DNA from: a bacterium
GTDB lineage: Bacteria > SM23-31
NCBI GenBank assembly: GCA_965221205.1
Contig: OZ244870.1
Coordinates: forward strand, 1,118,782 to 1,182,781
Length of the DNA stretch: 64,000 nt
Direction of reading: 5' to 3'
Translations under genes and position numbers: made by a program
Shown here: piece after piece, positions 10,454 through 61,867 of the stretch
Layout of the letters: each line of letters begins with the position of its first letter
Numbering within the stretch: the first letter of the stretch is position 1
Notes under the pieces: generated by a model
What the model saw: only the letters and a program-made list of their open reading frames with translations
What the model was told of the DNA's origin: nothing
The model's database searches: none

Positions 10454-12055
10454 ATGCGAAATATTACATTGCTTTTTGTACCAGCATTATTGTCGATGTT
10501 AGTGCTTTTCCCGCATACAGTATTGAGCCAGAATCCTGCCCCGGATAGAGGACAGGATGAGGGCATTGGTCCATTTGAAACGCTCGTTGTCCGCGGTGCA
10601 ATACTTATAGATGGAACCGGTGCACCACCGAGAGGTCCGGTAGATATTGTGATCAAACGCAACCGGATCGAAAGCATCTTAAGTGCCGGTACGCCCGGTA
10701 TCCCTTTGGAAGATGGACGTGAACCACTTAATGCTGATTATGAACTCGATGCGGAAGGTATGTATATAATGCCGGGCTTTGTTAATCTGCATACTCATGC
10801 AGGAGGTCGGAAGGCGCCTGAAACCGAGTATGTCTATAAACTCTGGCTTGCGCACGGTATTACAACAGTGAGGGGGGTGGCTCTCGGAGGTATGGAATGG
10901 ACGTTGAACGAGCGGGAACGGAGTGCCCGAAACGAGATTTCTGCGCCGAGAATCGTTGCGTACCAACGTCCCGGGTCAGGCAATGAATGGAGTGAACGAT
11001 CGATCCGGACTGGAGAAGATGCGCGTGAGTGGGTCCGTTACGCTGCCCGAAAAGGTATCGACGGTATGAAACTTGTTGCCTTCAGGCCGGAAATAATGGC
11101 CGCGCTCCTTGATGAAGCACAAAAATTAAAACTCGGCTCTACGGCCCATCTTGCTCAGACCGGTGTGGCACAGATGAATGCTCTCGATGCTGCGCGGCTC
11201 GGTCTCGGTTCGTTAACGCATTTCTATGGACTCTTCGAAACGTTGTACAAAGACCATGACGTACAGCCCTGGCCGGCAGATATGAATTATAGTAACGAAC
11301 AGTTCCGCTTCGCACAAGTTGCACGGCAGTGGGACCTTATTCATCCTCAGGGAAGCAAAGAGTGGGACGCTTTACTGCAGGAATTTCTTGATCTTGATTT
11401 TATTCTCGATCCGACAATGACCGCCTATCTGGCGAACAGAGATCTCATGCGCGCCCGAAATGCCGATTGGCATAAGAGCTATACGCTGCCGTCTCTTTGG
11501 GAATTCTACGAACCGAACCGTACAGACCACGGGTCATACTGGTACTACTGGACAACTTCGGATGAGATCGCATGGAAGAGCTTCTTTCGTATTTGGATGT
11601 CATTCTTGGATGATTATAAAGACATGGGAGGCCGCGTAACAGTCAGCGAGGATGCGGCCTATCTCTACAGCCAATGGGGATTTGCGACAATAGAAGAAAT
11701 GGAACTCCTGCAGGAAGCGGGTTTTCATCCTTTAGAAGTGATCCGGAGTGCAACAATGTATGGAGCGGAAGCAATATTTGAACCGAAAGGCAGGCCGATC
11801 GAATATGGAGTAGTCCGTGAAGGTCTTCTGGCGGATCTGGTTGTAATCGATGAAAATCCTCTCGCAAACTTGAAAGTCCTGTATGGTACGGGTTGGCTGC
11901 GATTAAACGATGATACACGAAAAGTCGAAAGGGTTGGGGGAATTAATTATACGATAAAAGACGGTATCCTTTATGATGCAAAACAGCTGCTTGCGGATGT
12001 TGAAGAAATGGTCAAAAAAGCGAAAGAAGAAATGATCAACGGACAGGTTCCTTAA
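10454..12055 (+). CDS. Secreted metal-dependent amidohydrolase-family protein (possible dipeptidase or amide hydrolase)
   Basis: 533 aa with an N-terminal signal peptide (LLFVPALLSMLVLFPHTVLSQ). It has the amidohydrolase-superfamily HxH metal motif NLHTHAGG and a C-terminal DLVVIDENP-type motif. Confidence 0.65.
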   Translation: MRNITLLFVPALLSMLVLFPHTVLSQNPAPDRGQDEGIGPFETLVVRGAILIDGTGAPPRGPVDIVIKRNRIESILSAGTPGIPLEDGREPLNADYELDAEGMYIMPGFVNLHTHAGGRKAPETEYVYKLWLAHGITTVRGVALGGMEWTLNERERSARNEISAPRIVAYQRPGSGNEWSERSIRTGEDAREWVRYAARKGIDGMKLVAFRPEIMAALLDEAQKLKLGSTAHLAQTGVAQMNALDAARLGLGSLTHFYGLFETLYKDHDVQPWPADMNYSNEQFRFAQVARQWDLIHPQGSKEWDALLQEFLDLDFILDPTMTAYLANRDLMRARNADWHKSYTLPSLWEFYEPNRTDHGSYWYYWTTSDEIAWKSFFRIWMSFLDDYKDMGGRVTVSEDAAYLYSQWGFATIEEMELLQEAGFHPLEVIRSATMYGAEAIFEPKGRPIEYGVVREGLLADLVVIDENPLANLKVLYGTGWLRLNDDTRKVERVGGINYTIKDGILYDAKQLLADVEEMVKKAKEEMINGQVP

Positions 12056-12230
12056 CATACATTACTATAGGTGTATATATTTATTGTTGGTCTCGTGCGA
12101 TTAAAATATCTGTATAATCTTTTACAATCACGCTATTTTATTTATTAAGTGTGCAATAATATTTATATTATTTGTAAATTTTAGTCGTGCTTAGACACTT
12201 TTTTGAAACCATAGCATAATTTTTTTCAAT

Positions 12231-13517
12231 ATGAAAACTTCTCATAAAATAATTAATGGTGATTGTCGACAGATGAATTGTTTGTCCAACAAATCTGTTC
12301 ATTTAGTCATTACATCGCCACCTTATTGGCATTTAAAAGATTATGGCATAGAAAATCAAATTGGATTTCATGATAGTTATGAAAACTATATAAACAACTT
12401 AAATTTGGTTTGGAAAGAGTGCCACAGAGTTTTATATCCTGGTTGTCGACTTTGTGTAAATATTGGAGACCAATTTGCTCGTTCTGTATATTACGGTCGT
12501 TATAAAATCATCCCGATTAGAACAGAAATAATAAAATTTTGTGAAACAATAGGTTTCGATTACATGGGGGCTATTATTTGGCAGAAGGTGACCACAACCA
12601 ATACGACTGGCGGAGCGACTATAATGGGAAGTTATCCTTATCCTCGAAATGGAATATTAAAACTTGATTACGAGTTTATTCTTTTATTTAAAAAGCACGG
12701 CAAAGCACCGAAACCATTTGCTGAGCAAAAGAAATTATCTGAATTGAGCAAGGAAGAATGGAATACATATTTTTCAGGGCATTGGAATTTTTCAGGAGCA
12801 AAACAAAACAATCATCTTGCTATGTTTCCTGAAGAATTACCTGCTAGATTAATAAAAATGTTTGCTTTTATTGATGAAACAGTTTTAGATCCTTTCTTGG
12901 GGAGTGGAACAACTTCTCTTGCAGCGAAAAATTTAGGACGCAATTCAATCGGTTATGAAATCAATCAAGAATATATTCCTAAAATCAAAGAAAAACTCAA
13001 CATGTTACAATTTGATATCGAAAAAACTGAATATATTTTCTTAAATGATAGTATAAAATCTGACTTGAATAAGGATATTAATGAACTTCCGTATATATTT
13101 AAAGACCCACTTAAATTAGATAAAATTATTAATCCTAAAAAATCACAATTTGGTTCAAAAATTGATATAAACAGGAAAGAACGAGAAGAGTATTATTCAG
13201 TGAAAGAAATCATTAGTCCTGAGTTAATAAAACTTAATAATGATTTGACTATTCGTTTGCTTGGTGTAAAAAATAAAGAAAGTAAAAATGTGGAGGCTAT
13301 TCAGTTTCTTTCTGATAAGACTAAAGGGGAAAAGGTATTTTTAAAATACGATGATATAAAGTATGATAAAAATAGCAATTTGCTTTGTTATTTATATTTG
13401 AAAAATAAGACATTCATTAATTCTCATTTAATAAAAGAAGGACTGGCAGAAGTTAATCAATCTGTAGATTTTAAATACAAAGACAAATTTCAAAAGTTGG
13501 CGATAAATAATGGCTAA
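12231..13517 (+). CDS. Beta-class (motif IV before motif I) N6-adenine/N4-cytosine DNA methyltransferase fused to a C-terminal degenerate thermonuclease (SNase-like) domain
   Basis: Motif IV is ITSPPYW near the N-terminus and motif I is LDPFLGSGTTSLAAKNLGRNSIGYE downstream. C-terminal residues ~300-428 resemble the staphylococcal-nuclease fold (IRLLGVKNKE ... LCYLYLKNKTFINSHLIKEGLAEV). The gene lies in a roughly 2 kb AT-rich island. Confidence 0.75.
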   Translation: MKTSHKIINGDCRQMNCLSNKSVHLVITSPPYWHLKDYGIENQIGFHDSYENYINNLNLVWKECHRVLYPGCRLCVNIGDQFARSVYYGRYKIIPIRTEIIKFCETIGFDYMGAIIWQKVTTTNTTGGATIMGSYPYPRNGILKLDYEFILLFKKHGKAPKPFAEQKKLSELSKEEWNTYFSGHWNFSGAKQNNHLAMFPEELPARLIKMFAFIDETVLDPFLGSGTTSLAAKNLGRNSIGYEINQEYIPKIKEKLNMLQFDIEKTEYIFLNDSIKSDLNKDINELPYIFKDPLKLDKIINPKKSQFGSKIDINRKEREEYYSVKEIISPELIKLNNDLTIRLLGVKNKESKNVEAIQFLSDKTKGEKVFLKYDDIKYDKNSNLLCYLYLKNKTFINSHLIKEGLAEVNQSVDFKYKDKFQKLAINNG

Positions 13518-13550
13518 ATAATGGCTAAATAATGGATATTGAATAGCTCA

Positions 13551-14162
13551 ATGAACCGATTCCAATTGAATTTCAAACGGAATGTTGGTCCAACTTCTGA
13601 AAATATACGAATGTGTGCTCCAGCGACTATTGAAGAATGGCGAGAATATTATTTTGAAAACGTTAGACCTAAAGAGCATATTGAAGATCTTGGCAGGAAA
13701 TTATATATTAAGATTACAGAAGTTATTTCAGCTGAAGTAGAAAAAATTACCGAACAGGATTGCATAAATTATATGATGCAATTAGTTATTGACCGGACAT
13801 TCGATGGTTATATGACAGAAATTAAAACAATTTATGGCCAGCTTCAAAAACTACTTGGTATAAAAATCGAACCTGCGCCTGACGAGTGGGATAGACTGTA
13901 CAACGTAGACTTCTGTATTAAAATTAATGAAAAGTTTGTCGGAATACAAATAAAACCAGTAAATCAAGGTATTCAGCTACCTCAGATATTTAAAGAAAAG
14001 GAGATTCAACGTAAATCTCATGAAAAGTTTAAAGATCGATTTGGCGGCAAGGTATTTTATGTCTTTTCTTCTAAAAAAGAAGACAAAAAAGAAATTATTA
14101 ATAAAGAAGTGGTTAGTGAGATATTACAAGAGATTGATCGATTAATATTAGATAACGATTAA
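13551..14162 (+). CDS. Candidate restriction endonuclease or other nuclease partner of the methyltransferase (unknown family)
   Basis: About 200 aa, starting 20-35 bp after the MTase stop on the same strand, with the same AT-rich composition. It has a possible PD-(D/E)xK-like arrangement VDFCIKINEKFVGIQIK. The assignment rests on gene context only. Confidence 0.35.
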   Translation: MNRFQLNFKRNVGPTSENIRMCAPATIEEWREYYFENVRPKEHIEDLGRKLYIKITEVISAEVEKITEQDCINYMMQLVIDRTFDGYMTEIKTIYGQLQKLLGIKIEPAPDEWDRLYNVDFCIKINEKFVGIQIKPVNQGIQLPQIFKEKEIQRKSHEKFKDRFGGKVFYVFSSKKEDKKEIINKEVVSEILQEIDRLILDND

Positions 14163-14283: not shown

Positions 14284-15654
14284 ATGACGACACAGAATAA
14301 CCGCGGCGGTTGGAGTTCCAGTTTGGGATTTATCCTGGCATCGGCAGGTTCGGCAATTGGTCTTGGCAATATTTGGCGTTTCCCCTATATGGTTGGTCAG
14401 AATGGCGGCGCAGCATTTGTCGTAGTGTATCTCATCTGTATTTTCCTCATCGGCTTTCCTATTATGGTGGCAGAATTGACTCTCGGTAGGTCGGCACAAA
14501 AAAATCCGGTTGGTGTATTTAAAGAGCGGGCTGTTGGGACACCGTGGGAGTTTCTCGGTTACATCATGGTTGTGATCGTAATGGTTATTTTTTCGTGGTA
14601 CAGTGTAGTTGCGGGATGGATTATCGGCTATTTTTATAAAACTGTAGTCGGAACGTTTAGTAACCTCTCAGGCCCCGGTGAAACGCAGGATATTTTTACT
14701 CAATTTGTAGGAAATCCGGTACCGGTCATGCTGCTGACACTTCTCTTCATTGTAATGACCGGATACGTTGTACTCGGAGGAGTCAGAAGTGGCATCGAAC
14801 GGTTGTCCCGTATCTTGATGCCGGTATTGCTGGTCATATTAATCCTTCTTGCAATCCGGTCGATAACACTTCCAGGTGCATCCGAAGGAATTGCTTACTA
14901 TTTGAAACCCGATTTTTCAAAACTGAACAGCAGTGTCATTGCGGCAGCTATGGGGCAGGCATTTTTATCGCTGAGTATTGGCGCTGGTTCCGTAATGACC
15001 TATGGCAGCTACCTTTCCAAACGTGATAATATTCCGATTTCATCATCCTGGGTCTGCTTTCTCAACACCAGCGTCTCTCTGCTGGCGGGATTTATTATAC
15101 TACCGGCAGTTGCCGCACTGGGACAGGAGTACACCGCTGGTCCCGGATTAATCTTCCAGGTTCTCCCTTCTATTTTTGGTGTTATGCCGCTCGGACAACT
15201 TTTCGGAATCGGACTCTTTCTGCTCCTTATTATTGCGGCACTCACCTCAACAGTATCCATGCTCGAAGTACCCGTGGCTTATTTTGTTGATGAACGCAAG
15301 TGGACCAGAAAAAAAGCTGTTATATCCATGGTTGTACTTTCGTTTGTGATGAGTACACCCGCAGCACTATCTGCCGGTGCAAGTGATTTTTTCTCAAAAC
15401 TGCCCGGTATCGGCATGGATTATCTCTCCTTTGCCAGCGCAATTTCCGGTGATATTTTTATGGTCGTGAGTGCATTTCTGATGACTTTGTTTATCGGATA
15501 TAAATGGACCATCAAAAATGCAATTGGAGAGGTGACGCTGAACAATATCAACTTTCCTTTGAGTCAGATATGGGGATTTTTATTGCGCTTTGTAATTCCG
15601 GTTTTTGTACTAATCATCTTATGGTTTTCAATAAAAAACAATTTCTTTGCATAA
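14284..15654 (+). CDS. Neurotransmitter:sodium symporter (NSS/SNF) family transporter, likely an amino-acid transporter
   Basis: 456 aa polytopic membrane protein with the NSS signature GLGNIWRFPY near the N-terminus. Confidence 0.85.
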   Translation: MTTQNNRGGWSSSLGFILASAGSAIGLGNIWRFPYMVGQNGGAAFVVVYLICIFLIGFPIMVAELTLGRSAQKNPVGVFKERAVGTPWEFLGYIMVVIVMVIFSWYSVVAGWIIGYFYKTVVGTFSNLSGPGETQDIFTQFVGNPVPVMLLTLLFIVMTGYVVLGGVRSGIERLSRILMPVLLVILILLAIRSITLPGASEGIAYYLKPDFSKLNSSVIAAAMGQAFLSLSIGAGSVMTYGSYLSKRDNIPISSSWVCFLNTSVSLLAGFIILPAVAALGQEYTAGPGLIFQVLPSIFGVMPLGQLFGIGLFLLLIIAALTSTVSMLEVPVAYFVDERKWTRKKAVISMVVLSFVMSTPAALSAGASDFFSKLPGIGMDYLSFASAISGDIFMVVSAFLMTLFIGYKWTIKNAIGEVTLNNINFPLSQIWGFLLRFVIPVFVLIILWFSIKNNFFA

Positions 15655-15914
15655 GCTTTAATTATAAGATTAAATTCGAATATATGTATTTACTGTGATG
15701 AACAGTATCGAAAATCTTTCTGTATTGAGAGGAGTGAGCAGTTCAATTCGGTTGTATATAGTGTGCTTATCGAGCTTTGCAGTTTTATCTTTATTTTCAT
15801 GCAGCGAAAATTCTCCATTTGATTTTCTGACGTGGCAGGACATCGCTGCTTTGCCTGTATGCCGACTACCGAATTCAGTATGGTGACGGTGAATTACAGT
15901 TTGGAAATCTGCGT

Positions 15915-16547
15915 TTGCCGGAAACTTCCGGATTACATCCTCTTGTGGTTGTCATTCATGGTGGGTGCTGGCTCAACACGTTCGACCTTGAGCATGCCGG
16001 AAATCTCTGTGCGGTATTTTCCGAAGCAGGAATCGCGACTTGGAGTCCAGAATATCGGCGTGTTGGCGACATCGGTGGAGGATGGCCGGGGACCTTTGAA
16101 GATGTAGCTCAAGGTTTAGACTATGTTCGGGAATTAGCAGAGATTTATCCGATCGATGTAAACCGGGTGATTACAGTCGGGCACTCTGCTGGCGGACATC
16201 TAGCACTCTGGTTGGCTGCACGAGCAAATTTGTCTCAGGATAGTCCTCTCTATACACCGGAACCATACCGGATACAAGGAGTCGTTTCACTTGCAGGCAT
16301 TACAGATATAAAAACATACAGTGCCGGTCCGAACGACTGCAATCAAGCGGCTCTCCATCTGCTTGGTGGAACAGTTGCAGATGTAAAAGACCGATATGAC
16401 CAGACAAATCCTCTTGATCTGCTTCCTTTCGGCATTACACAGCGATTGATTCACGGTTATCATGATGAAATAGTTTCTCCGGATCAAGCTCGAATGTATG
16501 TTGAGCGTGCTCAAAATGTCGGAGATGACGCTGAGAAATTATTATGA
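15915..16547 (+). CDS. Alpha/beta-hydrolase esterase/lipase (HGG oxyanion motif plus GHSAGG nucleophile elbow); the 5' region is apparently frameshifted away from a lipoprotein-type signal peptide in the 15695 frame
   Basis: Motifs VVIHGGCW and GHSAGGHLALW. Upstream ORF 15695-15886 encodes a signal/lipobox-like peptide (LSLFSCSENS). The hydrolase frame continues upstream as YADYRIQYGDGELQFGNLRLPE only after a frame change near 15840-15860. Confidence 0.65.
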   Translation: MPETSGLHPLVVVIHGGCWLNTFDLEHAGNLCAVFSEAGIATWSPEYRRVGDIGGGWPGTFEDVAQGLDYVRELAEIYPIDVNRVITVGHSAGGHLALWLAARANLSQDSPLYTPEPYRIQGVVSLAGITDIKTYSAGPNDCNQAALHLLGGTVADVKDRYDQTNPLDLLPFGITQRLIHGYHDEIVSPDQARMYVERAQNVGDDAEKLL

Positions 16548-16716
16548 TTGAAAATGCGGCTCATTTTGAATTCATTGCTCCTCACACTTCGGCGTTTTCA
16601 GTAGTAAAGCAAGTTGTGTTGGAATTGCTGAATATGGATTAGTAACCATTTCTTTTCATAAACGCTTGATTCAATACTGCAATTATCCCACTTTATATAA
16701 GGTATAAACGTAACGG

Positions 16717-17667
16717 ATGTCTCATACTACCCGGAATAGAATGGTCCTCCATAAAGAAACACCTCTCATTGAATCCCTACAGCTTCGGAAACGTACCGGA
16801 AAAAAAGTGTTCTTAAAAATGGAAAATCAGCAGCCGACCGGGTCGTTCAAAATCCGTGGTATAGGCCACTATTGCTCAGAGCTTGCACCATCAGGCGTGT
16901 CCCGGTTTATCTCCTCATCGGGCGGAAATGCCGGGTATGCTGTTGCTTATGCGGGAAATACATTGATGATAAACGTTACGGTAGCAGTACCCGAAACCAC
17001 ACCGCAATTCGTACAGGACCGGATTCGTGAATGTGGCGCAGATGTTGAAATACATGGTTCGATCTGGGATGAAACAGACGAGTATGCAAAAAAATTGGCT
17101 CACAATCTTGATGGCGCGTATATTTCTCCATTTGACCATCCTTCGATCTGGAACGGGCATGCTTCAATTATCGATGAGTTGGTACATCAAGCCGATAAAC
17201 CAGATGTTGTGGTTCTCTCTGTCGGTGGGGGTGGTTTACTCTGCGGTGCGATTGAAGGTTTACAGCGGAATGACTGGAGCGATGTCCAGGTCATCGCTGT
17301 CGAAACTGAAGGCGCTGCTTCGTTTGCCGCATCGGTATCGGCCGGTACGCTTGTGACACTCGACCGAATTGATTCTATTGCTTCAAGTCTTGGAGCCAAA
17401 CAGGTGACGTACAAATCACTAGATTTCTACAATACACTCGACATTACACCCCATATTGTCTCCGACCGAGATACAGTCGAAGCCTGTCTTGCATTTCTGA
17501 ATGATCACAATGTCCTGGTTGAGCCGGCTTGTGGCGCCGCATTGTCAGTTGTGTATTCAAATTCAAACGTGATCCGAGATGCACAGACGGTCATGATCAT
17601 TGTCTGCGGCGGTATCGGTGTTACTCCGGAGAAACTCAGGGAGTGGGATGAATCACTCCCTTTATAA
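16717..17667 (+). CDS. PLP-dependent L-serine/L-threonine dehydratase (SDH-like, fold-type II)
   Basis: 316 aa with PLP lysine motif SFKIRGIGH and glycine loop SVGGGGLLCGA. Confidence 0.8.
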   Translation: MSHTTRNRMVLHKETPLIESLQLRKRTGKKVFLKMENQQPTGSFKIRGIGHYCSELAPSGVSRFISSSGGNAGYAVAYAGNTLMINVTVAVPETTPQFVQDRIRECGADVEIHGSIWDETDEYAKKLAHNLDGAYISPFDHPSIWNGHASIIDELVHQADKPDVVVLSVGGGGLLCGAIEGLQRNDWSDVQVIAVETEGAASFAASVSAGTLVTLDRIDSIASSLGAKQVTYKSLDFYNTLDITPHIVSDRDTVEACLAFLNDHNVLVEPACGAALSVVYSNSNVIRDAQTVMIIVCGGIGVTPEKLREWDESLPL

Positions 17668-17672
17668 GAATA

Positions 17673-18872
17673 TCAGTCTTCCATCCGTTTTATTGATACT
17701 ACTTTCGGGAATATTGATCTTGTAATCCCCACCATCGGCACGGTAGTCAGCCAGACACGCTCTCCTTCAATAATTTTCATATCGATCTCATCAACCGATT
17801 GTACATCTTTCATTTCAGGTTTTATCTCGGTAATAATGCCGAAGAGTTCGGATTCCGGTGTAAAAACAGTACTGGTCATAAAACAGAGCGATTTTCCGGC
17901 ATGTTCATTCTCATCAGAAATGGTAAAAGCAATTTTAATTGCTTCACCGCCCGGTGCCTGAGACTCTGTAATAAATCGAACTGTTGCAGGATATCGGCCT
18001 TCCGGAGGGAAATAATTTTCTTCCTGCACTTTTACTTCTAATTGTATTTCCTCAATCAGAAATGTCTTTGCCCGATAGTTTCCGTCAGGAAGCACGGTCG
18101 GAATTGAGTACTGCGGATCGGTCAACAAGGCATACACAGTCGGATCGCCATCTCTCACTTTTTCTTTCGAGTTCAGCGGCCATTCGCTGCTGATTTGCTC
18201 AGCCCGTCCTGGGAGATTTTGTGCACTCAAAATCGATGTAATCGTCCAGTACATGTACTCGTCGATCTGACAGCCGTACCGGCATGATTCATCGTAGTAG
18301 TTATACCAGGAGCCATCGGGATACTGCTCGGGGGCATCCTTGAAATGTCCGCCTCTCGCTAAGTCCGCCGCCGCCGCCACTTTTGAGCCAGGTACGGGTG
18401 CAAATACCGATGGATATGCATTGCCCCATCCGTGACGCGTCAAGAGGTGGAGAGTCTCTTCCCATAAACCGTCGAACGTGTTGTTTTCGATAGCATTCGG
18501 ACGTGATTCATCAGCGAAATTATCGTGATAGACACCGTCGGGAAACGCGTAATGCAAGTCCTCATGGATCGCTTCCCATTCGTCTCCGGAATCCTTCGTC
18601 ATGACAAGTATAGCTTTTTTCTCGACCAGCGCATTCACAACACGCTGATCGTCAGGTATTCCGTCTTCATCATTGTCAAGATATTCTGCCAGAACATTCG
18701 CTGCATGCAGTAATTTTTCGTTGGGAGAGGTCGGAGTAGCATAGAGATGAATGCCAAATACATCCACCTGCTTCGTAAACACCGGGACTTCCAGTTGTTC
18801 TGTGCTAACTGTTGAGCAGCTAATCACCGCTAAATATGATAATCCTAACAGTGTGATCAATAATCTCTTCAT
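17673..18872 (-). CDS. Secreted lipoprotein of unknown function, tandem paralog 1, containing an HEDLH (HExxH-like) motif
   Basis: 399 aa. Signal peptide with lipobox-like LAVISCST. About 88% identical to the ORF at 19100-20299. Confidence 0.7.
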   Translation of the reverse strand: MKRLLITLLGLSYLAVISCSTVSTEQLEVPVFTKQVDVFGIHLYATPTSPNEKLLHAANVLAEYLDNDEDGIPDDQRVVNALVEKKAILVMTKDSGDEWEAIHEDLHYAFPDGVYHDNFADESRPNAIENNTFDGLWEETLHLLTRHGWGNAYPSVFAPVPGSKVAAAADLARGGHFKDAPEQYPDGSWYNYYDESCRYGCQIDEYMYWTITSILSAQNLPGRAEQISSEWPLNSKEKVRDGDPTVYALLTDPQYSIPTVLPDGNYRAKTFLIEEIQLEVKVQEENYFPPEGRYPATVRFITESQAPGGEAIKIAFTISDENEHAGKSLCFMTSTVFTPESELFGIITEIKPEMKDVQSVDEIDMKIIEGERVWLTTVPMVGITRSIFPKVVSIKRMED

Positions 18873-19009
18873 CGAAACCTCCGTAACTCAGCAATACGTT
18901 TTATCATCAAAACGGTATTATTCACGTGTTATTCATAGCTATACAAAAATGATTTTTAATGCTAATCCGTGTACGAGAGTAAAACTTCATCGGTCATTGC
19001 TGTCGGAAA

Positions 19010-19095
19010 CATAAGGTGCTGCTTCGTTTGCGGCATCGGTATCGGTGTTACTCAGGAGAAACTCCGGGAGTGGGATGCATCACTCCCTTCATAAG
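19010..19095 (+). pseudogene. Remnant of the 3' end of the serine dehydratase gene, copied with the duplicated unit and carrying an internal deletion
   Basis: 19010-19040 matches 17305-17342 and 19041-19095 matches 17610-17667, so the segment between them is deleted in this copy. Confidence 0.7.
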
Positions 19096-19099
19096 AATA

Positions 19100-20299: not shown

Positions 20300-20430
20300 C
20301 GAGACCTCCCTAACTCAGCAATTTGTTTTATCATCAAAACGGTATCTTTCACTTGCCATTAGTAGTTATACAAAAATGATTGCTGATGCTAATCCGTGTA
20401 CGAGAGTAAAACTCCAGCAAAAAACAATTA

Positions 20431-51482: not shown

Positions 51483-51622
51483 TGATTCGCAAATCGTATA
51501 GACTGATGAGTGAGAATCACTTGTGATAGCCAAATGCTTGCTATGCTATTCAAATCAAATGTCCAAAATGTTCTGACGACTTATATTTTTCTCATCTTAA
51601 CTAAATCTCAGGAACATGTGTT

Positions 51623-54162: not shown

Positions 54163-55173
54163 ATGAAATTCCGATATATCATTTTTTGTATTGTACCATT
54201 GTTTATCCTCACTTTCTGCAGTAGAGAAAGTGTCGAGGATCAGGCAACTGACACAACAACAGCCGATACGATTTTTCTGAAGGTTGGGATAAACAGTAGT
54301 TTAAGTCACCCATACGCTAAAGGAATGGAAAAATTCAAAGAAGTCCTCGAAACAGAAACGAATGGTACTGTCCATGTAAATATTTTTCCAAATGGTCAGC
54401 TCGGCAGTGAAGAAGATCAAGTTAATGGAATTAGACTCGGAACAATTGATGCTACAGTAGTTGCCGCAGGTAACTTGGCACCTTTTGTTTCAGAAATTGA
54501 GCTGTTCAACCTTCCTTTCATATTTAATGATCTGGAACATTTTTACCGTGTTCTTGACGGTCCTGTTGGTAAATGGGTTGGAAAAATCATCGAAAGGAAA
54601 ACGAACAGCGTATTCTTAAATTATTTGACTTTTGGAACACGGAATACATGGAATGCAACAAGACCAATCATCACACCCAAAGATTTTAATGGTCTGAAAA
54701 TCAGAGTTATGAGAAGCCCAATTTTACTCGATTCTTTTAATGCATTTGGAGCTCAAGCAACCAATATGTCATGGGGCGAATTTTATTCAGCGCTTCAACA
54801 AGGAGTTCTTGATGGTGGAGAAACCAGTGTAGTAGATTTGTATTTTGAAAATTTCTATGAAGTTACAAAGTATGTTTCATTAACAAATCATCTCATTGGA
54901 GCTGCTCCGTTCTTTTTTAATCAGAAGAAGTATGATGAGCTTCCACCGAATGTTCAGATTGCGATTTTAAAAGCAGGAAAGTATGCGGCAATCACCGCTC
55001 GTGAGGTAGAAGAAAGCTTAACCGAGGAAGCCTATGCAAAGTTGAATGGTATCGGAATAGAGTTCAACGTTGTAGATATAGAGCCTTTTCGACAAAAGAT
55101 TCAACCTATTTATGAAAAATATGCCGAACAACTTGGTGGAATGGAGGTTATTGAGCAAATTAGTAAGCAGTAA
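54163..55173 (+). CDS. TRAP transporter substrate-binding protein (DctP family), orphan (no DctQ/DctM nearby)
   Basis: 336 aa with signal/lipoprotein N-terminus (LFILTFCSRES) and DctP-like sequence LKVGINSSLSHPYAKGMEKFKEVLE...NGQLGSEEDQVNGIRLGTIDA. Confidence 0.7.
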   Translation: MKFRYIIFCIVPLFILTFCSRESVEDQATDTTTADTIFLKVGINSSLSHPYAKGMEKFKEVLETETNGTVHVNIFPNGQLGSEEDQVNGIRLGTIDATVVAAGNLAPFVSEIELFNLPFIFNDLEHFYRVLDGPVGKWVGKIIERKTNSVFLNYLTFGTRNTWNATRPIITPKDFNGLKIRVMRSPILLDSFNAFGAQATNMSWGEFYSALQQGVLDGGETSVVDLYFENFYEVTKYVSLTNHLIGAAPFFFNQKKYDELPPNVQIAILKAGKYAAITAREVEESLTEEAYAKLNGIGIEFNVVDIEPFRQKIQPIYEKYAEQLGGMEVIEQISKQ

Positions 55174-55821: not shown

Positions 55822-56848
55822 TTATTTCAATTTCCTCCAACCGTCAAAGGTTCGTTCGTCATGAATTCCATCTTGTGGCCCGGCGTTAGTTGATATCTGT
55901 ATTCGCTTGCAGGATCCTTCCGATACAAAACCATAGCACCCTCCGTCCGCTCCTTCTACGAGAGCACGAGTAATAGTGTACTGGACCAACTTATTTGTAG
56001 CTTTACCATTAAGTGTAGCCTGTGGTACATAAGGCTCAAGCAGATTGAGTTCTTCGGCGTAGCTTAGATGAATTTTTCTTAACAGCCCGTAGAGTGCGTC
56101 AGATGGCTTTTCAATGCTGAGTCCTAAATCCATAGCTTCTCTTCGGTTGATCGTATAGTCGTGACTTCCCGAATCTGCGCAGAGGAAGTCAATGATCGAT
56201 TTGACTTTTTTTCTATCGCCAACTTGTCGTCGTAACAACTTTTCAGCCAAGAACCGGATTTGTGTTTGTGTCCTGAATATTTCGCCAAGAACCAATGGGT
56301 GAATATGGCTGGTCAAGTCCAGAAGAACAGATGCAAGTGCCTGCTCTCCTCGAATTTTTAGCTCCTCGCGGGCTGCGTCTAAATAGCCACGAACATTTTC
56401 AACACTCACCGGGACTTGCTTGGATTGGCCGCCAATCGTTGCTTGTGGGTTTAGTGGGTTGTTTACGCTCGGATCTATGGGGCCTAGAGCTGCTTGCTTT
56501 GTCATGATTACCCGATCTGCACCGATAGAGATCAACGTACCCGCACTAAGTGCTTTCAGCGGGATCATAACCTCAAACTCGTCACAAAACATACGTACAA
56601 GATTCACTAATCGCCATGCCGCTAAAGTTTGTCCTCCGTCAGTGTGAAGAATCAGGGAGATACGCTGAGTCGGTCCTATCTTTTCGAGGAGGTCGACGAA
56701 TGGAACGATGCAATCCTGGGCAATGTGTGTTTCCATTGCCTTGACGGTCACTTGTTATGAACGACAGCACTTTGGTTTGTCTGTCTTGTTCGATGGAGTG
56801 ATAGAGTTTTTTGCGTTCAGAATAATTCATCGGGTTTAGCGCGTGCAA
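55822..56848 (-). pseudogene. ClpP/crotonase-fold serine peptidase of the S49-like 'serine dehydrogenase proteinase' (SDH) family; N-terminal ~35 codons in a different frame
   Basis: Main ORF 55822-56751 has ISLILHTDGGQTLAAWRLVNLVR...LSAGTLISIGADRVIM. The upstream N-terminus ...KVLSFITSDRQ is in ORF 56639-56848, frameshifted near 56750. Family assignment is from memory. Confidence 0.5.
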
Positions 56849-57451: not shown

Positions 57452-58174
57452 TTATAAGTTCCTTGTCAGTTCTTTATAAGACAATTTCTTCCCTCCGGTC
57501 CGTGAAAGAATCATGTTAAACATAGCGGAATGATTGCTTCTGTTATTATATCTGAATGTCTGCTCGTTAATATACCTCTGAAGGTGCTTTGGGGTTACAA
57601 AATGATGTATTCCATAAATAGACCGCTTCATTATAGCCCAAAACCCCTCAATGGTGTTTGTATGAACATCTCCCCGGGCATACTCATTCTTGCTATGATT
57701 AATACTTTCATGATCATAGAGCCTATTCAATTTCTTATAAGCATGCCACTCATCAGAAATAACCCGTGAACCGATATTGACATGCTCCAGTAACTTCTGC
57801 TCAACGGTACTTCTGTCAACGTGGGCAACTTGTTCAGCTTTTACCCTGCCAGTTTCCCTTTCAACCATGCCAACTACTGGCTCCTTTGTCTTGAGACTCC
57901 TGCCCTGAGTTTTATCTGTTTTCTTATTTCTATGTTTGTTCTTTTCCTTCCCTCCAATATAAGTATCATCTATTTCAACAATTCCTTTCATAGGAGCTGA
58001 GAAATTTTCATTTTTTACGGCTTCCCGTATCCTCTGAAGCATATAATAAGCAGTCTTCTGAGTAACCTTCATATCTCTTGCCAGTTGGTAAGAACTCATA
58101 CTTTTTTTGTGAGTAGTTAATAGATATATCGAGAGGAACCACTTACGAAGAGGTATCTTTGACCTTGCCCCCAA
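57452..58174 (-). mobile_element. IS1595-family transposase, 5'-truncated (lacks the zinc-ribbon N-terminal region), abutting the IS3-family element
   Basis: 240 aa starting at KIPLRKWFLSIYLLTTHKKSMSSYQLARDMKVTQKTAYYMLQRIREA, through the DDE region (ISDEWHAYKKL ... NTIEGFWAIMKRSIYG). No upstream zinc-ribbon coding on that strand. Confidence 0.7.
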
Positions 58175-58189: not shown

Positions 58190-59400
58190 GTATATTAGTA
58201 CAGGGATTAGATTGAAAAGAAAGGAGCAAGATCAATGGCACGTAGAATTCACACATCAGAACAAATTATCCACAAGCTTCGAGAGGCAGAAGTACTGCTC
58301 GCTCAAGGTCAGTCGGTTCAACAAGCTGCTCGCCAGATTGAGGTTACAGAGCAGACCTATTATCGTTGGCGAAAGGAGTATGGTGGTCTTCGGGTGAATC
58401 AGGCGAAACGATTGAAAGCGTTAGAGAGAGAGAATATTCGCCTGAAACGCCTGGTTGCCGAGAAAGAGTTGGATATTCAAATCCTCAATGAGACTCTGGC
58501 GGTTGATGCAAAAAACTTCTGAGCCCGGCGAAGCGACGGGAGGTGGTGCAGCATCTTTGCACGACTCTCGAGATCTCGCAGCGCCGGGCCTGTAGTGTGT
58601 TGGGAGTACCGCGCAGCACTCATCAATATCGCCCGATTTCTCCTGCGGATGAACCGGTGTTCGTGCAACGTATGGTCGAGTTGGCCACGCAGTATGGTCG
58701 GTATGGTTATCGACGAATTACCGCACTGTTACAGCCAGAAGGCTTCAAGGTCAATCATAAGAGAGTGGAGCGTTTGTGGCGTCGAGAAGGATTAAAAGTT
58801 CCCCGGAGGCAACCGAAGCGCAAACGGTTATGGCTCAATGACGGTTCGTGTATTCGGCTGCGACCTGCGTACCGGGATCATGTCTGGAGTTATGACTTCA
58901 TGCAAGCACGAACCCGAGAGGGAAGGAGCTATCGTTTGTTAACAATATTAGATGAATACAGTCGGGAGTGTCAGGCAATTGTGGTAGGCAGGAGGCTGAC
59001 TCACAATGACGTCATAGAACATCTTGCAACACTGTTCGTGCAGCGAGGAGTTCCGGTTCACCTGAGAAGTGATAATGGCACAGAGTTCACTGCTCAAGCG
59101 GTCCGGACATGGCTCATGCGCCTGGGAGTAAAAACATTGTATATTGAACCAGGCAGTCCATGGGAGAACGGGTATATTGAGTCGTTCAATGGCAAACTGC
59201 GTGATGAAGTGCTCAACCGGGAAATCTTCGATACCTTACACGAAGCAAAAGTGCTTGTGGAACGCTGGCGAAATGAGTATAATCATAAGAGACCGCATAG
59301 TGCCCTCAGATACCGGCCACCCGCCCCCGCGAGGCCGTTATACCACCGGATTCGGTCTCAAGGCCAATGGATAATACAACAATGAATATATCGATGAATT
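58190..59400 (+). mobile_element. IS3-family insertion sequence: orfA (58235-58522, HTH) and orfB (58543-59385, DDE integrase) linked by an A_AAA_AAC -1 frameshift site at 58510-58516; element boundaries approximate
   Basis: OrfA ...TEQTYYRWRKEYGG with a leucine-zipper-like tail. OrfB has RSDNGTEFTAQAV and YNHKRPHSAL. OrfB is in the -1 frame relative to orfA, and the slippery heptamer sits 4 codons before the orfA stop. Confidence 0.8.
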
Positions 59401-59414: not shown

Positions 59415-60075
59415 GTGGCCCAAACATTAGGGGCAGGTCACATTGAAACGATGGATATAATGCGCTCTATTCAGCCGGACATCATGATTAACAACCGGCT
59501 GGGTGTCGGTACTGTTGACTATTTTACACCGGAAATGTTCATCCCTTCGCCGGAAGAAGCCAAAGCGCTTGGTAATTTCGAAACCTGCATAACAATCAAC
59601 AATATATGGTTTCATAATAAGAATGAAACAAACTGGAAGATCCCGAAAGAAATTGTCTGGGAAGATGACTAACGGAGAGATCGATCCGGTTGATGCGCAC
59701 ATCCTCACAGGAGCCGGGAGACGGATTCACACGTACGGTGAATCTATCTTCGGTACTCAGGCAAGTCCGGTTCCCCACCCGGAGTGGGGTCGTATTACGA
59801 TGCTCACCCTGCCCAACGGAAATACCTGTTTGTATCTTCATGTTTTTATTTGGTCGGAAACAGCCTGACATGACCGGTGGGGTGATGAGCTGATTGTTGA
59901 AGGTTTAAGCAACCGTCCTGTACAGACATATGCCATGTCTACTATTCCGCAAAGGAATTTTAATGCTTCCCGCAGAGGCAATTCAATAGTAATAGAGCTT
60001 ACCGGAAAAGCTCCAGACATATCCACGAGTGTGCTTGTGCTCGATGTGGAAGGTCCGGTCGGAACATCAAATTAA
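59415..60075 (+). pseudogene. 3' fragment of a GH29 alpha-L-fucosidase gene, 5'-truncated at the IS3 element and internally frameshifted
   Basis: MRSIQPDIMINNRLG...DYFTPE...FETCITINNIW, then (other frames) NGEIDPVDAHILTGAGRRIHTYGESIFGT and a C-terminal domain ...VIELTGKAPDISTSVLVLDVEGP. Confidence 0.6.
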
Positions 60076-60319
60076 AAATGAAAGATTAAAAAACAGCCTC
60101 AATTCCATACGGGTTAGGCTGTATAGCAATAAACCCTCCTTATATGTGCAAATAAAGTTTTAATCGTTGTCTATATTATATTGGAGGAGAGTTACCTGGA
60201 TTACTACCTTTCGGAGGAGGTGCGAAAATAAGATTTGGATAAACCAAATCTATCCCTTAGTTTTTAACCGAAAGTGTCCAACATGTTCTGATGATGTAAA
60301 CTCAATCAGGAATTACACA

Positions 60320-61867
60320 ATGAAAACTCCATATAATTTTATAGCAAGTCTATATTTGTTGCTTATAATAGTATGTTCTGTATCTGCACAAGAGCCGGTC
60401 TACTGGGATATTGTGAATAAAATCATGGATGAAGCATTCGAACATTCCCAGATAATGGAGAACGCCAGCTGGCTCACTGACGTATTTGGCCCCCGGCATG
60501 TGAAAACGCCTGCATATTTTGAAGCCGCAGAATGGGCAAAAAATAAATTAGAAGAATATGGTCTCGCAAATGCACGTCTGGAGCCGTACGAGTTTGGGAT
60601 TGGTTGGGAGAATAAATATACTTCTGTCCACATGATGGCTCCCCAGTATATGCCGATCATCGCCTATCCTGCACCGTGGTCTGCCGGCACGGATGGAAAA
60701 GTACGGGGGCAGGTTGTTTACATTAATTTTGATGACATCACCTCTGAATTGGATTTGGAACAATACCGCGGAAAATTACAAAATTCTATTATTTTCACAA
60801 GACCGATACAGAAGTTGTCGCCACATTATGAATCATTAGCAACGAAATTTACGGATGATCAGCTTGATGAGATGGCGAAGATTCCCATTGGCCCCCGGGC
60901 CGCTGAAGAGCGGCGTGCACAAAGACTCGGTAAAAAGAGACTTTCCCGAAAGCAGATCATTGAATTTGTATTAAACGAAGGTGCACGGGCAATTGTCCGC
61001 ACTGATGGGAGAAGAGACTTCGGCACCGTCGAAGCCGGAGTTGTTGGCTTTACTTTAGAAACCAGTCCGTGGGAGGAAAACTCCCCGCCTAATCCAACGG
61101 AGTTGGTCATTGCAGCAGAACAATATAACAGGATACTGCGCATACTGGAAAAGAGCATTCCCGTTGAGATGGAAGTTGAGCTCAGGGTAAATTTTGTCAG
61201 AGGGAATTCAAACGATTACAATGTTGTCGCTGAGATACCCGGCACAGACCTGGCAGAAGAAATTGTAATATTGGGTGGGCATCTTCAAGCAGATCATGCC
61301 GGAACCGGCGCTACGGATAACGCCGCCGGTGTGGTGGTTTCCATGGAAACAATGCGCATTTTCAAAAAAATGAGTATCAAACCCCGTCGAACCATCCGCA
61401 TAGGACTCTGGGGAGGACACGAAATGGGTACATTTGGTAATCGGAGTCATGTCCGTAACAACTTTGCCGACTTGAAAAAAAAGGAATACAAGAAGGATTA
61501 TAAGAATCTTTCCGCATATTTCAATGTCGATCATGGTAGTGGTAAGATACGAGGTGTATCCGTCATGGAAAACGAAGTGATCAGGTCAATATTTACCGAA
61601 TGGATGAAACCCCTGAAAAACCTGGGAATGACGCATCTTTTCAATACCGGAATGGCTCATGAAGCATATGCTGAGGTTGGCCTGCCGGGGTATTATTTTC
61701 TGCAGGACAGGATGGATATGGAAATGAATGTTCATTCGAATATGGATGTCTATGACCGTCTTGTTCCCGAAAATCTGATGGCGAATGTGGTCATTCTTGC
61801 AACTTTTGTGTATCATGCTGCTATGCGCGATGAAAAACTCCCCCGAATTGCGCCGTTACCCTGGTAG
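60320..61867 (+). CDS. Secreted M28-like PA-domain protein, paralog 7, the only copy on the + strand; the true start is MKTPYNF, not the ORF-caller start at 60167
   Basis: Signal peptide ending VSAQEPVYWDIV. GGHLQADHAGTGATDNAAG ... WGGHEMGTFGN ... HSNMDVYDRL. Tail DEKLPRIAPLPW. Confidence 0.6.
   Translation: MKTPYNFIASLYLLLIIVCSVSAQEPVYWDIVNKIMDEAFEHSQIMENASWLTDVFGPRHVKTPAYFEAAEWAKNKLEEYGLANARLEPYEFGIGWENKYTSVHMMAPQYMPIIAYPAPWSAGTDGKVRGQVVYINFDDITSELDLEQYRGKLQNSIIFTRPIQKLSPHYESLATKFTDDQLDEMAKIPIGPRAAEERRAQRLGKKRLSRKQIIEFVLNEGARAIVRTDGRRDFGTVEAGVVGFTLETSPWEENSPPNPTELVIAAEQYNRILRILEKSIPVEMEVELRVNFVRGNSNDYNVVAEIPGTDLAEEIVILGGHLQADHAGTGATDNAAGVVVSMETMRIFKKMSIKPRRTIRIGLWGGHEMGTFGNRSHVRNNFADLKKKEYKKDYKNLSAYFNVDHGSGKIRGVSVMENEVIRSIFTEWMKPLKNLGMTHLFNTGMAHEAYAEVGLPGYYFLQDRMDMEMNVHSNMDVYDRLVPENLMANVVILATFVYHAAMRDEKLPRIAPLPW

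Follow-up and report, generated by a model that had tools for sequence, protein, structure and literature searches.

An operon-like block of secreted M28-family metallohydrolases in a mosaic region of an uncultured bacterial genome

The core block and the surrounding mosaic

The window, i.e. the whole stretch of 64,000 nucleotides analysed here, belongs to an uncultured bacterium that is probably related to the Acidobacteriota. Its assembly was obtained from long-read metagenomes and has named relatives in the Acidobacteriota and Aminicenantes; database relatives of the window proteins were labelled Aminicenantes, Hydrogenedentes, Acidobacteriota and 'bacterium SM23_57'. The original prediction had read some 50 kb of the window as one peptide-foraging locus of secreted peptidases, uptake systems and deaminases. 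The whole span is a mosaic and no single unit: a small operon-like core and scattered copies lie amid dead genes and mobile elements.

The genes of the core all point the same way on the minus strand and form an operon-like block from 31205 to 17673. It starts with M28_5 (29658-31205), followed by M28_4 (28061-29623, where the ATG at 29623 was chosen over a longer TTG open reading frame), M28_3 (26468-28018), M28_2 (24845-26434), a DUF885 lipoprotein of the Peptidase_MA clan (23161-24807; Pfam) and M28_1 (21593-23128), a secreted carboxypeptidase Q-like M28 metallohydrolase. The spacers between M28_5 and M28_1 measured 32-42 nt and carried RBS-like purine runs. Such tight spacing argues for co-transcription, and the core genes may be transcribed and regulated together. 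The single DUF885 protein had the predicted secretion signal, of lipoprotein type, and showed HNxxGH where its homologues have HExxGH, i.e. the Glu of the motif was missing. The block ends with an intact cytoplasmic aldo-keto reductase (AKR, 20431-21504; PF00248, E 5e-72; dN/dS 0.05) and two lipoproteins, unkA2 (19100-20299) and unkA1 (17673-18872), all three of which had been overlooked. The two lipoproteins are tandem duplicates with 87% identity; the sister genome holds a single copy, and a relic of the 3' end of the neighbouring dehydratase-like gene at 18984-19088 marks the duplication. Sequence searches of Pfam, NCBIfam and PDB gave no match for unkA1, a member of an unnamed family with 725 homologues found, and its N-terminal domain had no convincing fold match in the PDB (AF2 model, pLDDT 92).

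The remaining M28 genes form separate small units. M28_6 (39085-40674, minus strand), 84% identical to M28_2, lies upstream of an SSF sodium:solute symporter (37000-38751, minus; Pfam, with an NCBIfam sss superfamily match below cut-off). M28_7 (60320-61867, plus), in a block inverted with respect to the sister genome, is followed by an AKR pseudogene (62026-63112, plus) and a frameshifted SSF pseudogene or fragment (63188-63974, plus). The latter was the second of two predicted SSS symporters and lies past the end of the proposed locus.

To the left of the core, the predicted secreted amidohydrolase (10454-12055, plus; Pfam Amidohydro_1) indeed had a signal peptide, together with an HxH metal motif and a weak NCBIfam match to an amidohydrolase-type Xaa-Pro dipeptidase. 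It may possibly be a dipeptidase or carboxypeptidase, and was placed at the edge of the set. An overlooked, GC-poor restriction-modification pair (12231-14162) divides this left part. Beyond it, on the plus strand, follow the one NSS (SNF) sodium-dependent transporter expected (14284-15654; PF00209, E 4e-61; NCBIfam Na_transp), a BD-FAE-type alpha/beta-hydrolase esterase (15915-16547; Pfam) and a PLP-dependent Ser/Thr dehydratase-like gene, PALP (16717-17667; PF00291, E 4e-68; NCBIfam dehydratase-family matches all below cut-off). The esterase had been taken for secreted; no signal peptide was found, and in-frame stop codons lie just upstream. A second dehydratase-like gene (9124-10107), counted with the locus, closes the ilv/leu operon, to the left of the proposed range.

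The part from 40.7 to 64 kb is rearranged, IS-bearing and rich in pseudogenes. Of three or four predicted M24-like copies in the region, only M24_1 (48551-49981, plus; Pfam 26.9 bits) was intact and secreted. Its AF2 model had a prolidase/creatinase fold in Foldseek; the metal-ligand positions read K-D-N-E-E against D-D-H-E-E in the family, so that two of five ligands are missing. The other copies were a fragment (47663-47956, plus; blastx) and two pseudogenes, one in several frames (50027-51479, plus), the other frameshifted and interrupted by an internal stop (35433-36757, minus). The TRAP-type DctP binding protein (54163-55173, plus; Pfam, NCBIfam) was confirmed, with no DctQ/M partner in the window. 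The supposed secreted S49-like peptidase (55822-56751), adjoining IS1595, turned out to be an SDH-type ClpP-fold protease matched over just 69 profile positions and with no signal peptide. IS1595 and IS3 (57.5-59.4 kb, upstream of M28_7) had been overlooked as well, as had the pseudogenes of the AKR, of a fucosidase (a pseudogene or fragment, upstream of M28_7) and of a frameshifted Vps10/sortilin-BNR beta-propeller protein (51632-53882, plus; blastx, tblastn to the sister-genome orthologue, Pfam of that orthologue). An FGE-sulfatase-family gene was also present in the window. At least eight pseudogenes or gene fragments belong to the mosaic, together with the IS elements and the restriction-modification island; the dead genes include three of the four M24 copies, an AKR, an SSF and the sortilin gene.

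Age and active site of the M28 paralogues

The prediction of seven secreted M28-like proteins held in full. All seven genes are intact, matched PF04389 with E-values from 1.7e-21 to 2.2e-18, and encode an N-terminal hydrophobic signal with AQE at its end in the alignment. Pairwise identities ranged from 54 to 84% (tblastn), and dN/dS against the sister genome from 0.10 (M28_1) to 0.14 (M28_7). In a neighbour-joining tree the orthologues from three genomes formed one-to-one trios, and the paralogue clades grouped with distant lineages, which shows that the duplications are old. The paralogues are ancient lineages under purifying selection (dN/dS about 0.1) and do not stem from recent amplification. 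Tandem copies are adjacent as a result of duplication, therefore their clustering by itself proves little.

Alignment to PDB entry 3iib and to the Aeromonas/Vibrio proteolytica aminopeptidase (AAP) showed conservation of all five M28 metal ligands. The canonical catalytic general-base Glu, the first E of the A-E-E motif, was replaced by His in 7/7 copies, and HLD by HLQ in all of them. Of the 120 database homologues closest to them, 108 showed the same combination; outgroup relatives at 36-50% identity retain EE and HLD. Since all seven proteins lack the canonical catalytic Glu, peptidase activity is what we infer for them, and the sequences would be compatible with hydrolysis in which His stands in for the general base.

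The best PDB match was 3iib ('Peptidase M28', a PA-domain, carboxypeptidase Q-like protein; E 2.7e-31 with the paralogue profile), spanning the C-terminal catalytic domain and a weak N-terminal stretch at low sequence identity; homologues carry the JGI label 'carboxypeptidase Q'. Like carboxypeptidase Q-like enzymes, the window proteins are secreted and keep the five metal ligands; unlike them, they have His for Glu and HLQ for HLD. With AAP they share the co-catalytic two-metal M28 site, and the engineered AAP variant E151H carries His at the position of their natural His. AAP, however, consists of one domain (291 aa), and its His is artificial. The E151H variant reportedly shows some activity loss. 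Entry 2anp, which we take to be the structure of this mutant (labelled 'leucyl aminopeptidase' by the search tool), scored slightly above wild-type AAP against the paralogue profile. The variant is called 'functional' in the title of Bzymek et al. 2005, as cited in PMC3426542 and PMC4320195. No characterised member of the His-variant clade was found in the literature searched, a search that covered the active-site variant through E151H.

Conservation in relatives and a shared upstream element

The sister genome (about 90% identical) was collinear for 10.4-40.7 kb only and precisely lacks DUF885; beyond 40.7 kb synteny was lost even there. In a relative at about 80% identity (OZ251221), the orthologues were scattered over at least eight sites. 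A single 50-kb locus is not in line with these data. Two sub-modules survived at about 80% identity, M28_1-AKR-unkA, retained in loci L005 and L006, and the M28_4/5/3 tandem. Adjacency of M28 and AKR was seen in L005, L006, L008, L010, L018, L024, L029 and L036, and L018 has the M28, AKR and unkA families all near one another. An SSS symporter adjoins the same M28 clade in L014, L018 and L024, too. The NSS transporter, esterase, PALP and amidohydrolase, by contrast, adjoined the M28 array in the sister genome only among the loci examined.

Members of this M28 clade on unrelated metagenomic contigs again have, at distances of up to 10 kb, several genes from a set of other peptidases (DUF885, M24, S15/PepX, M14, M20, M61, S9) and amino-acid-related functions (amidohydrolase, RidA, Na/Ala symporter, peptide-binding SBP_bac_5), a pattern that fits a peptide- and amino-acid-scavenging lifestyle. 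Vps10/sortilin-BNR propellers recur beside it in independent lineages. Co-occurrence of differing families, M28 with DUF885, M24 and sortilin, is hence a recurrent feature; the literature searched held no paper describing such clusters. At distant loci, a beta-lactamase-fold protein, a penicillin amidase and an Asp/Glu racemase were seen beside an M28 gene. Each related genome also carries multiple members of the M24-like and the unkA family.

A search for a shared promoter motif upstream of the M28-like genes had been suggested. We found a repeated intergenic, promoter-like element of 60-95 nt, laid out as TTGtAA-N17-TAnnAT at 45-160 nt upstream of start codons and comprising the TAnnAT box and a GTTCGCAAATCGTACAGCCCGAGGAG block. 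It precedes M28_5 (hence the array), M28_6, M28_7, M24_1, SSF and DctP, and does not stand upstream of NSS, esterase, dehydratase or amidohydrolase. On the minus strand, a weak copy of the promoter-like half (31273-31318; nhmmer E 0.022) with an exact AAAACACTTGTAAAA core lies 68 nt upstream of M28_5, one copy about 75 nt upstream of M28_6 (40750-40800) and one between M28_6 and SSF (38972-39053; E 5.8e-6). Plus-strand copies were detected upstream of M24_1 (48180-48257 and 48467-48529; E 3.5e-9 and 5e-3), at 51475-51559 (E 8e-15), upstream of DctP (53934-54016; E 1.8e-19), 46 nt upstream of M28_7 (partial, 60215-60274; E 7e-4) and, best-scoring, in the gap between M28_7 and the AKR pseudogene (61891-61985; E 1.3e-21). 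Across the loci, the element occurred within 400 nt upstream of 29/92 set genes against 8/149 other ORFs (odds ratio 8.1, p = 8e-8), in a test biased by the choice of loci around M28 genes. Sigma-70 promoter and terminator scans stayed at background level. The element also precedes lactonase-like propeller and RidA genes and the glycosidase genes GH2, GH29 (fucosidase) and GH51, so that any regulon would not be peptide-specific.

Proposed role and comparison with known systems

We consider it rather probable that secreted exopeptidase-like metallohydrolases have expanded throughout this genome in a lineage-specific way and that the region carries part of this expansion, with an operon-like core and old M28 paralogues. 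Trimming of oligopeptide ends is the most likely role of the M28 set: the paralogues, each with its own specificity, would remove terminal residues in the periplasm or at the cell surface, and the freed amino acids or dipeptides would be taken up via Na+-coupled symporters. Peptides as substrates are suggested by family and neighbourhood. Of the foraging reading, the battery of secreted exopeptidase-like metallohydrolases and the recurrent peptidase neighbours remain; its uptake and deamination steps are not supported by NSS, esterase and PALP, which, like the amidohydrolase, flank the M28 array in the sister only among the loci examined and lack the element. NSS, dehydratase and amidohydrolase may at best be linked to the set.

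Abundant families could simply have been piled up by tandem duplication and IS shuffling, with no unit beyond single genes. The loss of synteny beyond 40.7 kb, the dispersal in OZ251221, the DUF885 gene absent from the sister, IS1595, IS3 and the many pseudogenes all speak for this, as does the genome-wide abundance of the families (in OZ252239, at least 12 M28 copies in its loci and 10 M24-like proteins among the top 120 matches). Nevertheless, we regard such incidental co-location as unlikely: differing families come together again in unrelated lineages in other gene orders, the two sub-modules named above hold together at about 80% identity, the array spacers favour co-transcription, and the element is enriched at set genes. 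The element itself might be a selfish REP/MITE-like repeat that gathers in plastic regions, neither promoter nor operator, and would then imply no common regulation. Restriction to one genus- or family-level lineage, many copies directly after stop codons, and orphan copies (47495-47539, 43214-43175) in the decayed zone with no gene downstream make this a serious, if not favoured, option. Its orientation, however, always follows that of the flanking genes, its layout and distance to start codons are promoter-like, it forms neither palindrome nor hairpin (RNAalifold energy 0), and none of the other window genes tallied has a copy ahead of it.

A broader secreted-hydrolase programme, directed at glycoproteins, complex organic matter or unusual amides such as D-amino-acid peptides, with altered chemistry or substrate of the His-variant M28, appears quite improbable to us. 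The E-to-H and D-to-Q changes mark the entire clade, though, and the AAP E151H data above point the same way, as do the element ahead of glycosidase, propeller and RidA genes, the fucosidase pseudogene and sulfatase-family gene, the constant BNR/sortilin neighbours and the unusual genes beside distant M28. Against it, classical exopeptidases (M14, M20, M24, M61, S9, S15) are the commonest neighbours, and the five metal ligands are intact.

The original prediction likened its peptide-foraging set to polysaccharide utilisation loci (PULs). With those of Bacteroidota the region shares clustered secreted hydrolases of related function, some of them co-directional, and possibly the upstream element. 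Unlike PULs, the window has no SusC/SusD pair, its gene order breaks up in relatives instead of being kept as one unit, and pseudogenes are many; no TonB-dependent or SusCD-type transporter was found among roughly 40 window ORFs scanned, and no sensor or regulator (hybrid two-component, ECF/anti-sigma) in the window, so that the analogy breaks down at the features that define such loci. The region resembles peptidase-rich uncultured sediment heterotrophs, which have abundant secreted M28 and M24 genes as found here; in White Oak River estuary sediments, M28 is reported to rank with the commonest annotations of extracellular peptidases (PMC6752024).

Gene content and decay of the window

The window carries a real battery of secreted exopeptidase-like genes, which is kept by selection and has an operon-like core. 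Its gene map is based on Pfam and NCBIfam scans, internal tblastn and blastx against the ORFs of related loci. The first part is occupied by ilvB'/N/C, citramalate synthase, leuA, leuC, leuD, leuB and a short PALP (PLP dehydratase-like) gene without ACT domain (58-10107), followed by a secreted amidohydrolase (10454-12055), an N6/N4 methyltransferase-SNase fusion with an MjaI-type endonuclease (12231-14162) and, on the plus strand, an NSS transporter, a BD-FAE esterase and a PALP dehydratase (14284-17667). The core itself lies on the minus strand (17673-31205) and comprises unkA1 and unkA2, two lipoproteins of an unnamed family, an aldo-keto reductase (AKR), M28_1 (21593-23128), DUF885 (23161-24807), M28_2 (24845-26434), M28_3 (26468-28018), M28_4 (28061-29623) and M28_5 (29658-31205). 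Sigma-70 promoter and intrinsic-terminator scans over 14-33.5 kb stayed at shuffle background. Beyond DUF5698, an FGE-sulfatase-family protein, a TfoX fragment, a truncated CMAS and an M24 pseudogene (31533-36757), an SSF symporter and M28_6 (39085-40674) follow on the minus strand (37000-40674).

From 40.7 to 64 kb the window is decayed. This zone holds IS1595 fragments or copies (40905-41210, 45682-46396 and 57452-58174), an IS3 (58211-59385), SDR and F420-oxidoreductase fragments, an M24 fragment (47663-47956), the intact M24_1 (48551-49981), an M24 pseudogene (50027-51479), a frameshifted sortilin-Vps10/BNR pseudogene (51632-53882), DctP (54163-55173), a truncated SDH-type ClpP-fold protease (55822-56751), a fucosidase fragment (59442-60051), M28_7 (60320-61867, plus strand), an AKR pseudogene (62026-63112) and an SSF fragment (63188-63974). 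Truncated genes were also seen at 33435-33770, 34293-35087 and 44003-45245 (a TfoX N-terminal fragment, a CMAS methyltransferase, an SDR and an F420-type oxidoreductase), so gene decay is not confined to the peptidase families. At the protein level the IS3 ORFs are 97% identical to multiple copies in the more remote relative OZ251221, a value far above the 74-85% of M28 orthologues in that genome, which suggests that this element spread recently.

The original prediction listed these genes as one protein- and peptide-foraging locus at 10454-61867. Its count of seven M28 genes was borne out, as were the DUF885, NSS, SSF, DctP, amidohydrolase and PALP genes. Its description of the hydrolases as all secreted did not hold: in-frame stop codons lie ahead of the esterase ORF, which starts inside the fold, and the 'S49-like' peptidase is the SDH protease, which has no N-terminal signal and in which only residues 30-98, a 69-residue stretch, match the profile (positions 93-161 of 286). 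One M24-like copy is intact where three or four had been named, the others not being so. The second SSS symporter is the fragment that lies past the end of the proposed locus. A second dehydratase-like gene does exist (9124-10107), but outside the range: it is the short PALP gene that closes the ilv/leu operon, and it scored below all NCBIfam cut-offs. Synthesis of isoleucine via citramalate does not require threonine dehydratase, and since the citramalate synthase of this operon (2695-4317) scored above its NCBIfam cut-off, isoleucine can probably be obtained without that enzyme.

We also asked whether the broken ORFs could stem from assembly errors, which seems unlikely, since the first 40 kb are clean, several of the breaks are stop codons or large IS-flanked rearrangements, and the sequence is common to independent assemblies. 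IlvC and neighbouring proteins were 99-100% identical to genes in long-read metagenome assemblies (ENA, Logan). The GC content was about 0.44 over the window with the exception of an island of 0.30 at 12-14 kb. The restriction-modification pair situated there (12231-14162) is nearly identical in the sister genome OZ252239.1, with a dS of 0.004-0.008 as against 0.2-0.55 in the genes on either side, a difference suggestive of recent transfer or recombination of the pair; dS was also low (0.05) for the adjacent amidohydrolase. An Rfam search of the window matched no family and ARAGORN found no tRNA in it.

M28 paralogues and other members with altered catalytic positions

One M24, one DUF885 and all seven M28 genes of the window deviate at catalytic positions, and several more genes of the set survive only as pseudogenes. 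The seven M28 proteins scored 67-77 bits against Pfam PF04389 (cut-off 21.3) and had a mean column identity of 72%; the solved structure closest to the paralogue profile was 3iib ('Peptidase M28', E 2.7e-31). When aligned to the ligand motifs of 3iib, the five metal ligands H318, D330, E/D365, D401 and H468 were invariant in all seven. The general-base Glu, however, is replaced by a His, which is likewise invariant in the seven copies (residue 364 in M28_1), and gives the motif WGGHE or WGGHD as opposed to AAEELG in 3iib and GAEEAG in keratinase KP1. Furthermore, H-L-D has become H-L-Q, with a Gln (residue 320 in M28_1) for the second-shell Asp after the first ligand His.

These substitutions characterize a clade. 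H-E or H-D was found in 108 and HLQ in 104 of the 120 closest database proteins, and the outgroup sequences in the loci examined (36-50% identical) had G-G-E-E with HLD. Among 150 representatives of a 50% clustering, E-E was present in 136 of the 146 that carry a residue both at the general-base column and at the ligand column next to it. The HLQ signature occurred in two representatives, one of which ends before the general-base column. H-E occurred in eleven; ten of these read HLD, which implies that the exchange of Glu for His arose more than once. An engineered E151H variant of Aeromonas aminopeptidase is called 'functional' in the title of work by Bzymek and colleagues from 2005. PDB 2anp, which we take to be the structure of this mutant and which is listed under 'leucyl aminopeptidase', scored slightly above wild-type AAP against the M28 paralogue profile. 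By analogy, a His acting as general base would be a plausible candidate chemistry for this clade. Amino- or carboxypeptidase activity of the M28 copies is putative, following from family membership, and every copy departs from the canonical mechanism.

The copies are old and constrained. In a neighbour-joining tree of 49 sequences, M28_1, 3, 4, 5 and 7 each formed a clean trio with the orthologues from the sister genome and from the more remote relative OZ251221.1, and M28_2 and M28_6 each paired with the sister orthologue. Sequences from distant lineages fell inside several paralogue clades, so the M28 duplications long predate these species. A recent amplification was rejected, with paralogues 54-66% identical versus 74-85% for orthologues in a separate species, and with old splits in the tree. 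Between the window and the sister genome dN/dS was 0.10-0.14 for all seven genes, at a dS of 0.22-0.55.

M24_1 scored 26.9 Pfam bits (cut-off 23) and has the two-domain prolidase/creatinase fold. A search of PDB sequences with the M24 family profile gave no match; the AF2 model of the M24-like fold (pLDDT 87) matched Xaa-Pro aminopeptidase 2zsg in Foldseek with E 5e-16. In 44 aligned members, the ligand columns, assigned by motif and not by superposition, read K-D-N-E-E in M24_1 (with K291 and N395) and its three closest orthologues, and D-D-H-E-E in most of the other 40. M24_1 may be a non-catalytic or metal-independent variant. The DUF885 protein scored 79 Pfam bits (cut-off 32.4), and its zincin-type motif reads HNNLGH versus HExxGH in eight homologues aligned from other loci. 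DUF885 is placed in the Pfam clan Peptidase_MA (PMC12572635). For unkA, sequence searches gave no Pfam, NCBIfam or PDB match. Its model (pLDDT 92) showed in Foldseek against the PDB just a C-terminal OB-like domain and weak zincin-like matches, with no convincing fold match for the N-terminal domain; the invariant residues of the family include H56, E138, E139 and H142.

Synteny and a shared upstream element

Synteny did not support the 50-kb span as one locus. M28_1 was 92% identical to its orthologue in the sister genome and 80% to that in the more remote relative, the nearest species-level genomes; still more remote relatives are labelled Acidobacteriota and Candidatus Aminicenantes. Three loci of the sister genome (about 90% identical) were joined into a 54.7-kb stretch, which was collinear with the window only over 10390-40686, at 85-94% nucleotide identity. 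Even there, the DUF885 gene (window 23183-24768) is cleanly missing from between the M28_1 and M28_2 orthologues, and unkA is present as a single copy versus two in the window. The tandem unkA copies (17673-20299) are 87% identical, and some 130 nt upstream of them are conserved as well. The duplication took with it 34 codons from the 3' end of the adjacent PALP gene, which survive as a relic (18984-19088). Past 40.7 kb, the block from sortilin and DctP to M28_7 is inverted relative to the sister genome, and 41.2-51.8 kb has no counterpart in its stretch. In the 6 kb between DctP and M28_7, the sister genome has genes for a PAS histidine kinase (in two separate ORFs), an HTH_17-REC response regulator (both at 4379-7653 of locus L009) and a Glu-synthase/Rieske protein. 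No trace of these genes was found in the window, where the SDH protease, IS1595, IS3 and the fucosidase fragment take their place.

In the more remote relative (about 80% identity) the orthologues are dispersed over at least eight separate places, with sub-modules kept: M28_1-AKR-unkA-M28_7 (L006), M28-M28_6-DUF885 with three M24 (L007) and an M28_4/M28_5/M28_3 tandem (L012/L013). The NSS, esterase, PALP and amidohydrolase genes adjoined the M28 array in the sister genome only, among the loci of both relatives examined.

A comparison of exact shared 10-mers in hand-picked upstream regions returned nothing but the unkA duplication. The shared element surfaced thereafter, when a direct-repeat search revealed a 64-nt repeat family in 40.6-64 kb; three copies of its core 18-mer are present in the window, versus 0.01 expected by chance. 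Iterated nhmmer then recovered 50, later 66, copies in the window and the loci of the two relatives, and none in more distant loci. The element measures 60-95 nt and follows the pattern GTTCGCAAATCGTACAGCCCGAGGAG...ACTTGTAAAAG-N13-TATCTTAATAT, with the consensus aaagGTTCGcAAAtCgTACAgCCCGagGAGtAgaaAacACTTGtAAaAG, about 13 nt and TatcTTAatAT. Its 3' half resembles TTGtAA-N17-TAnnAT, and RNAalifold detected no conserved RNA structure in it.

In our reading the element is a candidate cassette of promoter plus operator, serving a set of secreted hydrolases wider than peptidases; the main alternative is that it is a REP/MITE-like repeat. Copies stand upstream of M28_6 (40750-40800), SSF (38972-39053), M24_1 (48180-48257 and 48467-48529), the sortilin pseudogene (51475-51559), DctP (53934-54016), M28_7 (partial, 60215-60274) and the AKR pseudogene (61891-61985), and two are orphans (43175-43214 and 47495-47539). 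The copy upstream of M28_5, the head of the array, is weak (31273-31318, E 0.022) with an exact AAAACACTTGTAAAA core. All copies point in the same direction as the genes that flank them. In the window and both relatives, an element lies at most 400 nt upstream of 29 of 92 M28, M24, sortilin, DUF885, AKR, unkA, SSS and DctP genes versus 8 of 149 other ORFs (Fisher odds ratio 8.1, p = 8e-8, in loci sampled around M28 genes). The eight include GH2, GH51-type arabinofuranosidase, GH29 fucosidase, RidA, a lactonase-like propeller and an alpha/beta hydrolase. The tally also covered NSS, esterase, PALP, amidohydrolase, restriction-modification and ilv/leu genes, and none of those counted had the element. 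As regards possible co-regulation, a promoter-like element therefore stands before the M28 array (weakly), M28_6, M28_7, M24_1, SSF and DctP, and not before NSS, esterase, PALP and amidohydrolase. Standing beside the array in the sister genome only and without the element, the NSS, dehydratase and amidohydrolase genes are not supported as part of the set.

Related loci and comparison with polysaccharide utilization

The window set is part of a genome-wide expansion, and its families are repeatedly co-located in several uncultured lineages. Ten M24-like proteins from contig OZ252239 alone were among the top 120 matches, unkA has 725 homologues, and the families are multi-copy in each genome. 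For a wider comparison we used M28 homologues 61-70% identical on unrelated contigs, with neighbours taken from precomputed Pfam annotation. One lineage (L030/L033) has S15/PepX, three M28, two sortilin-Vps10, a GMC oxidoreductase, DUF885 and M24; another (L035/L036/L037) has M61, up to three DUF885, M20, up to four M24, M14, sortilin-Vps10, EamA, a Na/Ala symporter and AKR. L038 combines S9, M14, amidohydrolase, a beta-lactamase fold, RidA, penicillin amidase and sortilin-Vps10, and L039 S15, sortilin-Vps10, RidA, SBP_bac_5 and an Asp/Glu racemase. With a locus extending at most 10 kb to either side of its M28 gene, tblastn placed a sortilin-Vps10 gene near M28 in 18 of 34 related loci (L005-L039 except L026). 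Vps10/sortilin-BNR beta-propeller proteins of about 780-1060 aa were seen in L007, L009, L010, L014, L015, L020, L022 and L030-L039. A literature search for DUF885 with M28, peptide utilization loci or sortilin-BNR with peptidases found nothing relevant.

Much carbon and nitrogen is turned over through the breakdown of extracellular protein, and to our knowledge most of the enzymes that serve uncultured bacteria in this process are known just from annotation. The most economical reading of the set, which we hold to be rather probable from family membership, is that peptides would be trimmed outside the cell or in the periplasm and the products taken up by Na+-coupled transport. Of most interest here are the M28 clade with its His variant, the association of M28 with sortilin, and the shared element. 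It is conceivable, though we consider the full combination unlikely, that the His/Gln-variant CPQ-like M28 clade is an uncharacterised, catalytically distinct exopeptidase family, that bacterial Vps10/sortilin beta-propellers are its peptide-capturing partners, and that in this lineage the whole secreted-hydrolase set is under a single conserved promoter/operator cassette, about 60 nt long, and makes up a regulon for foraging dead biomass or detritus. The recurrent M28-DUF885-M24-sortilin clusters are concrete candidates for peptide-processing systems in uncultured lineages, and the shared element offers a handle on the regulation of large paralogue sets. If active, the His-variant clade would represent a natural co-catalytic metallopeptidase with an exchanged general base; should the proteins prove inactive, or the clusters a coincidence, 'peptidase' annotation counts in MAGs overstate proteolytic potential.

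The likeness to polysaccharide utilization loci (PUL) that had been drawn for the window was not supported. About 40 window ORFs were scanned, and none matched the Plug, TonB_dep_Rec or SusD Pfam families; a TonB-dependent receptor does lie at the edge of L033, one of the distant loci. The Pfam scan of window ORFs likewise revealed no sensor or regulator, in agreement with the original prediction, the kinase and response regulator between DctP and M28_7 belonging to the sister genome. A PUL, in contrast, has its own TonB-dependent transporter in the outer membrane, paired with a SusD-like binding protein, and a linked sensor or regulator, and it is conserved as a unit in relatives.
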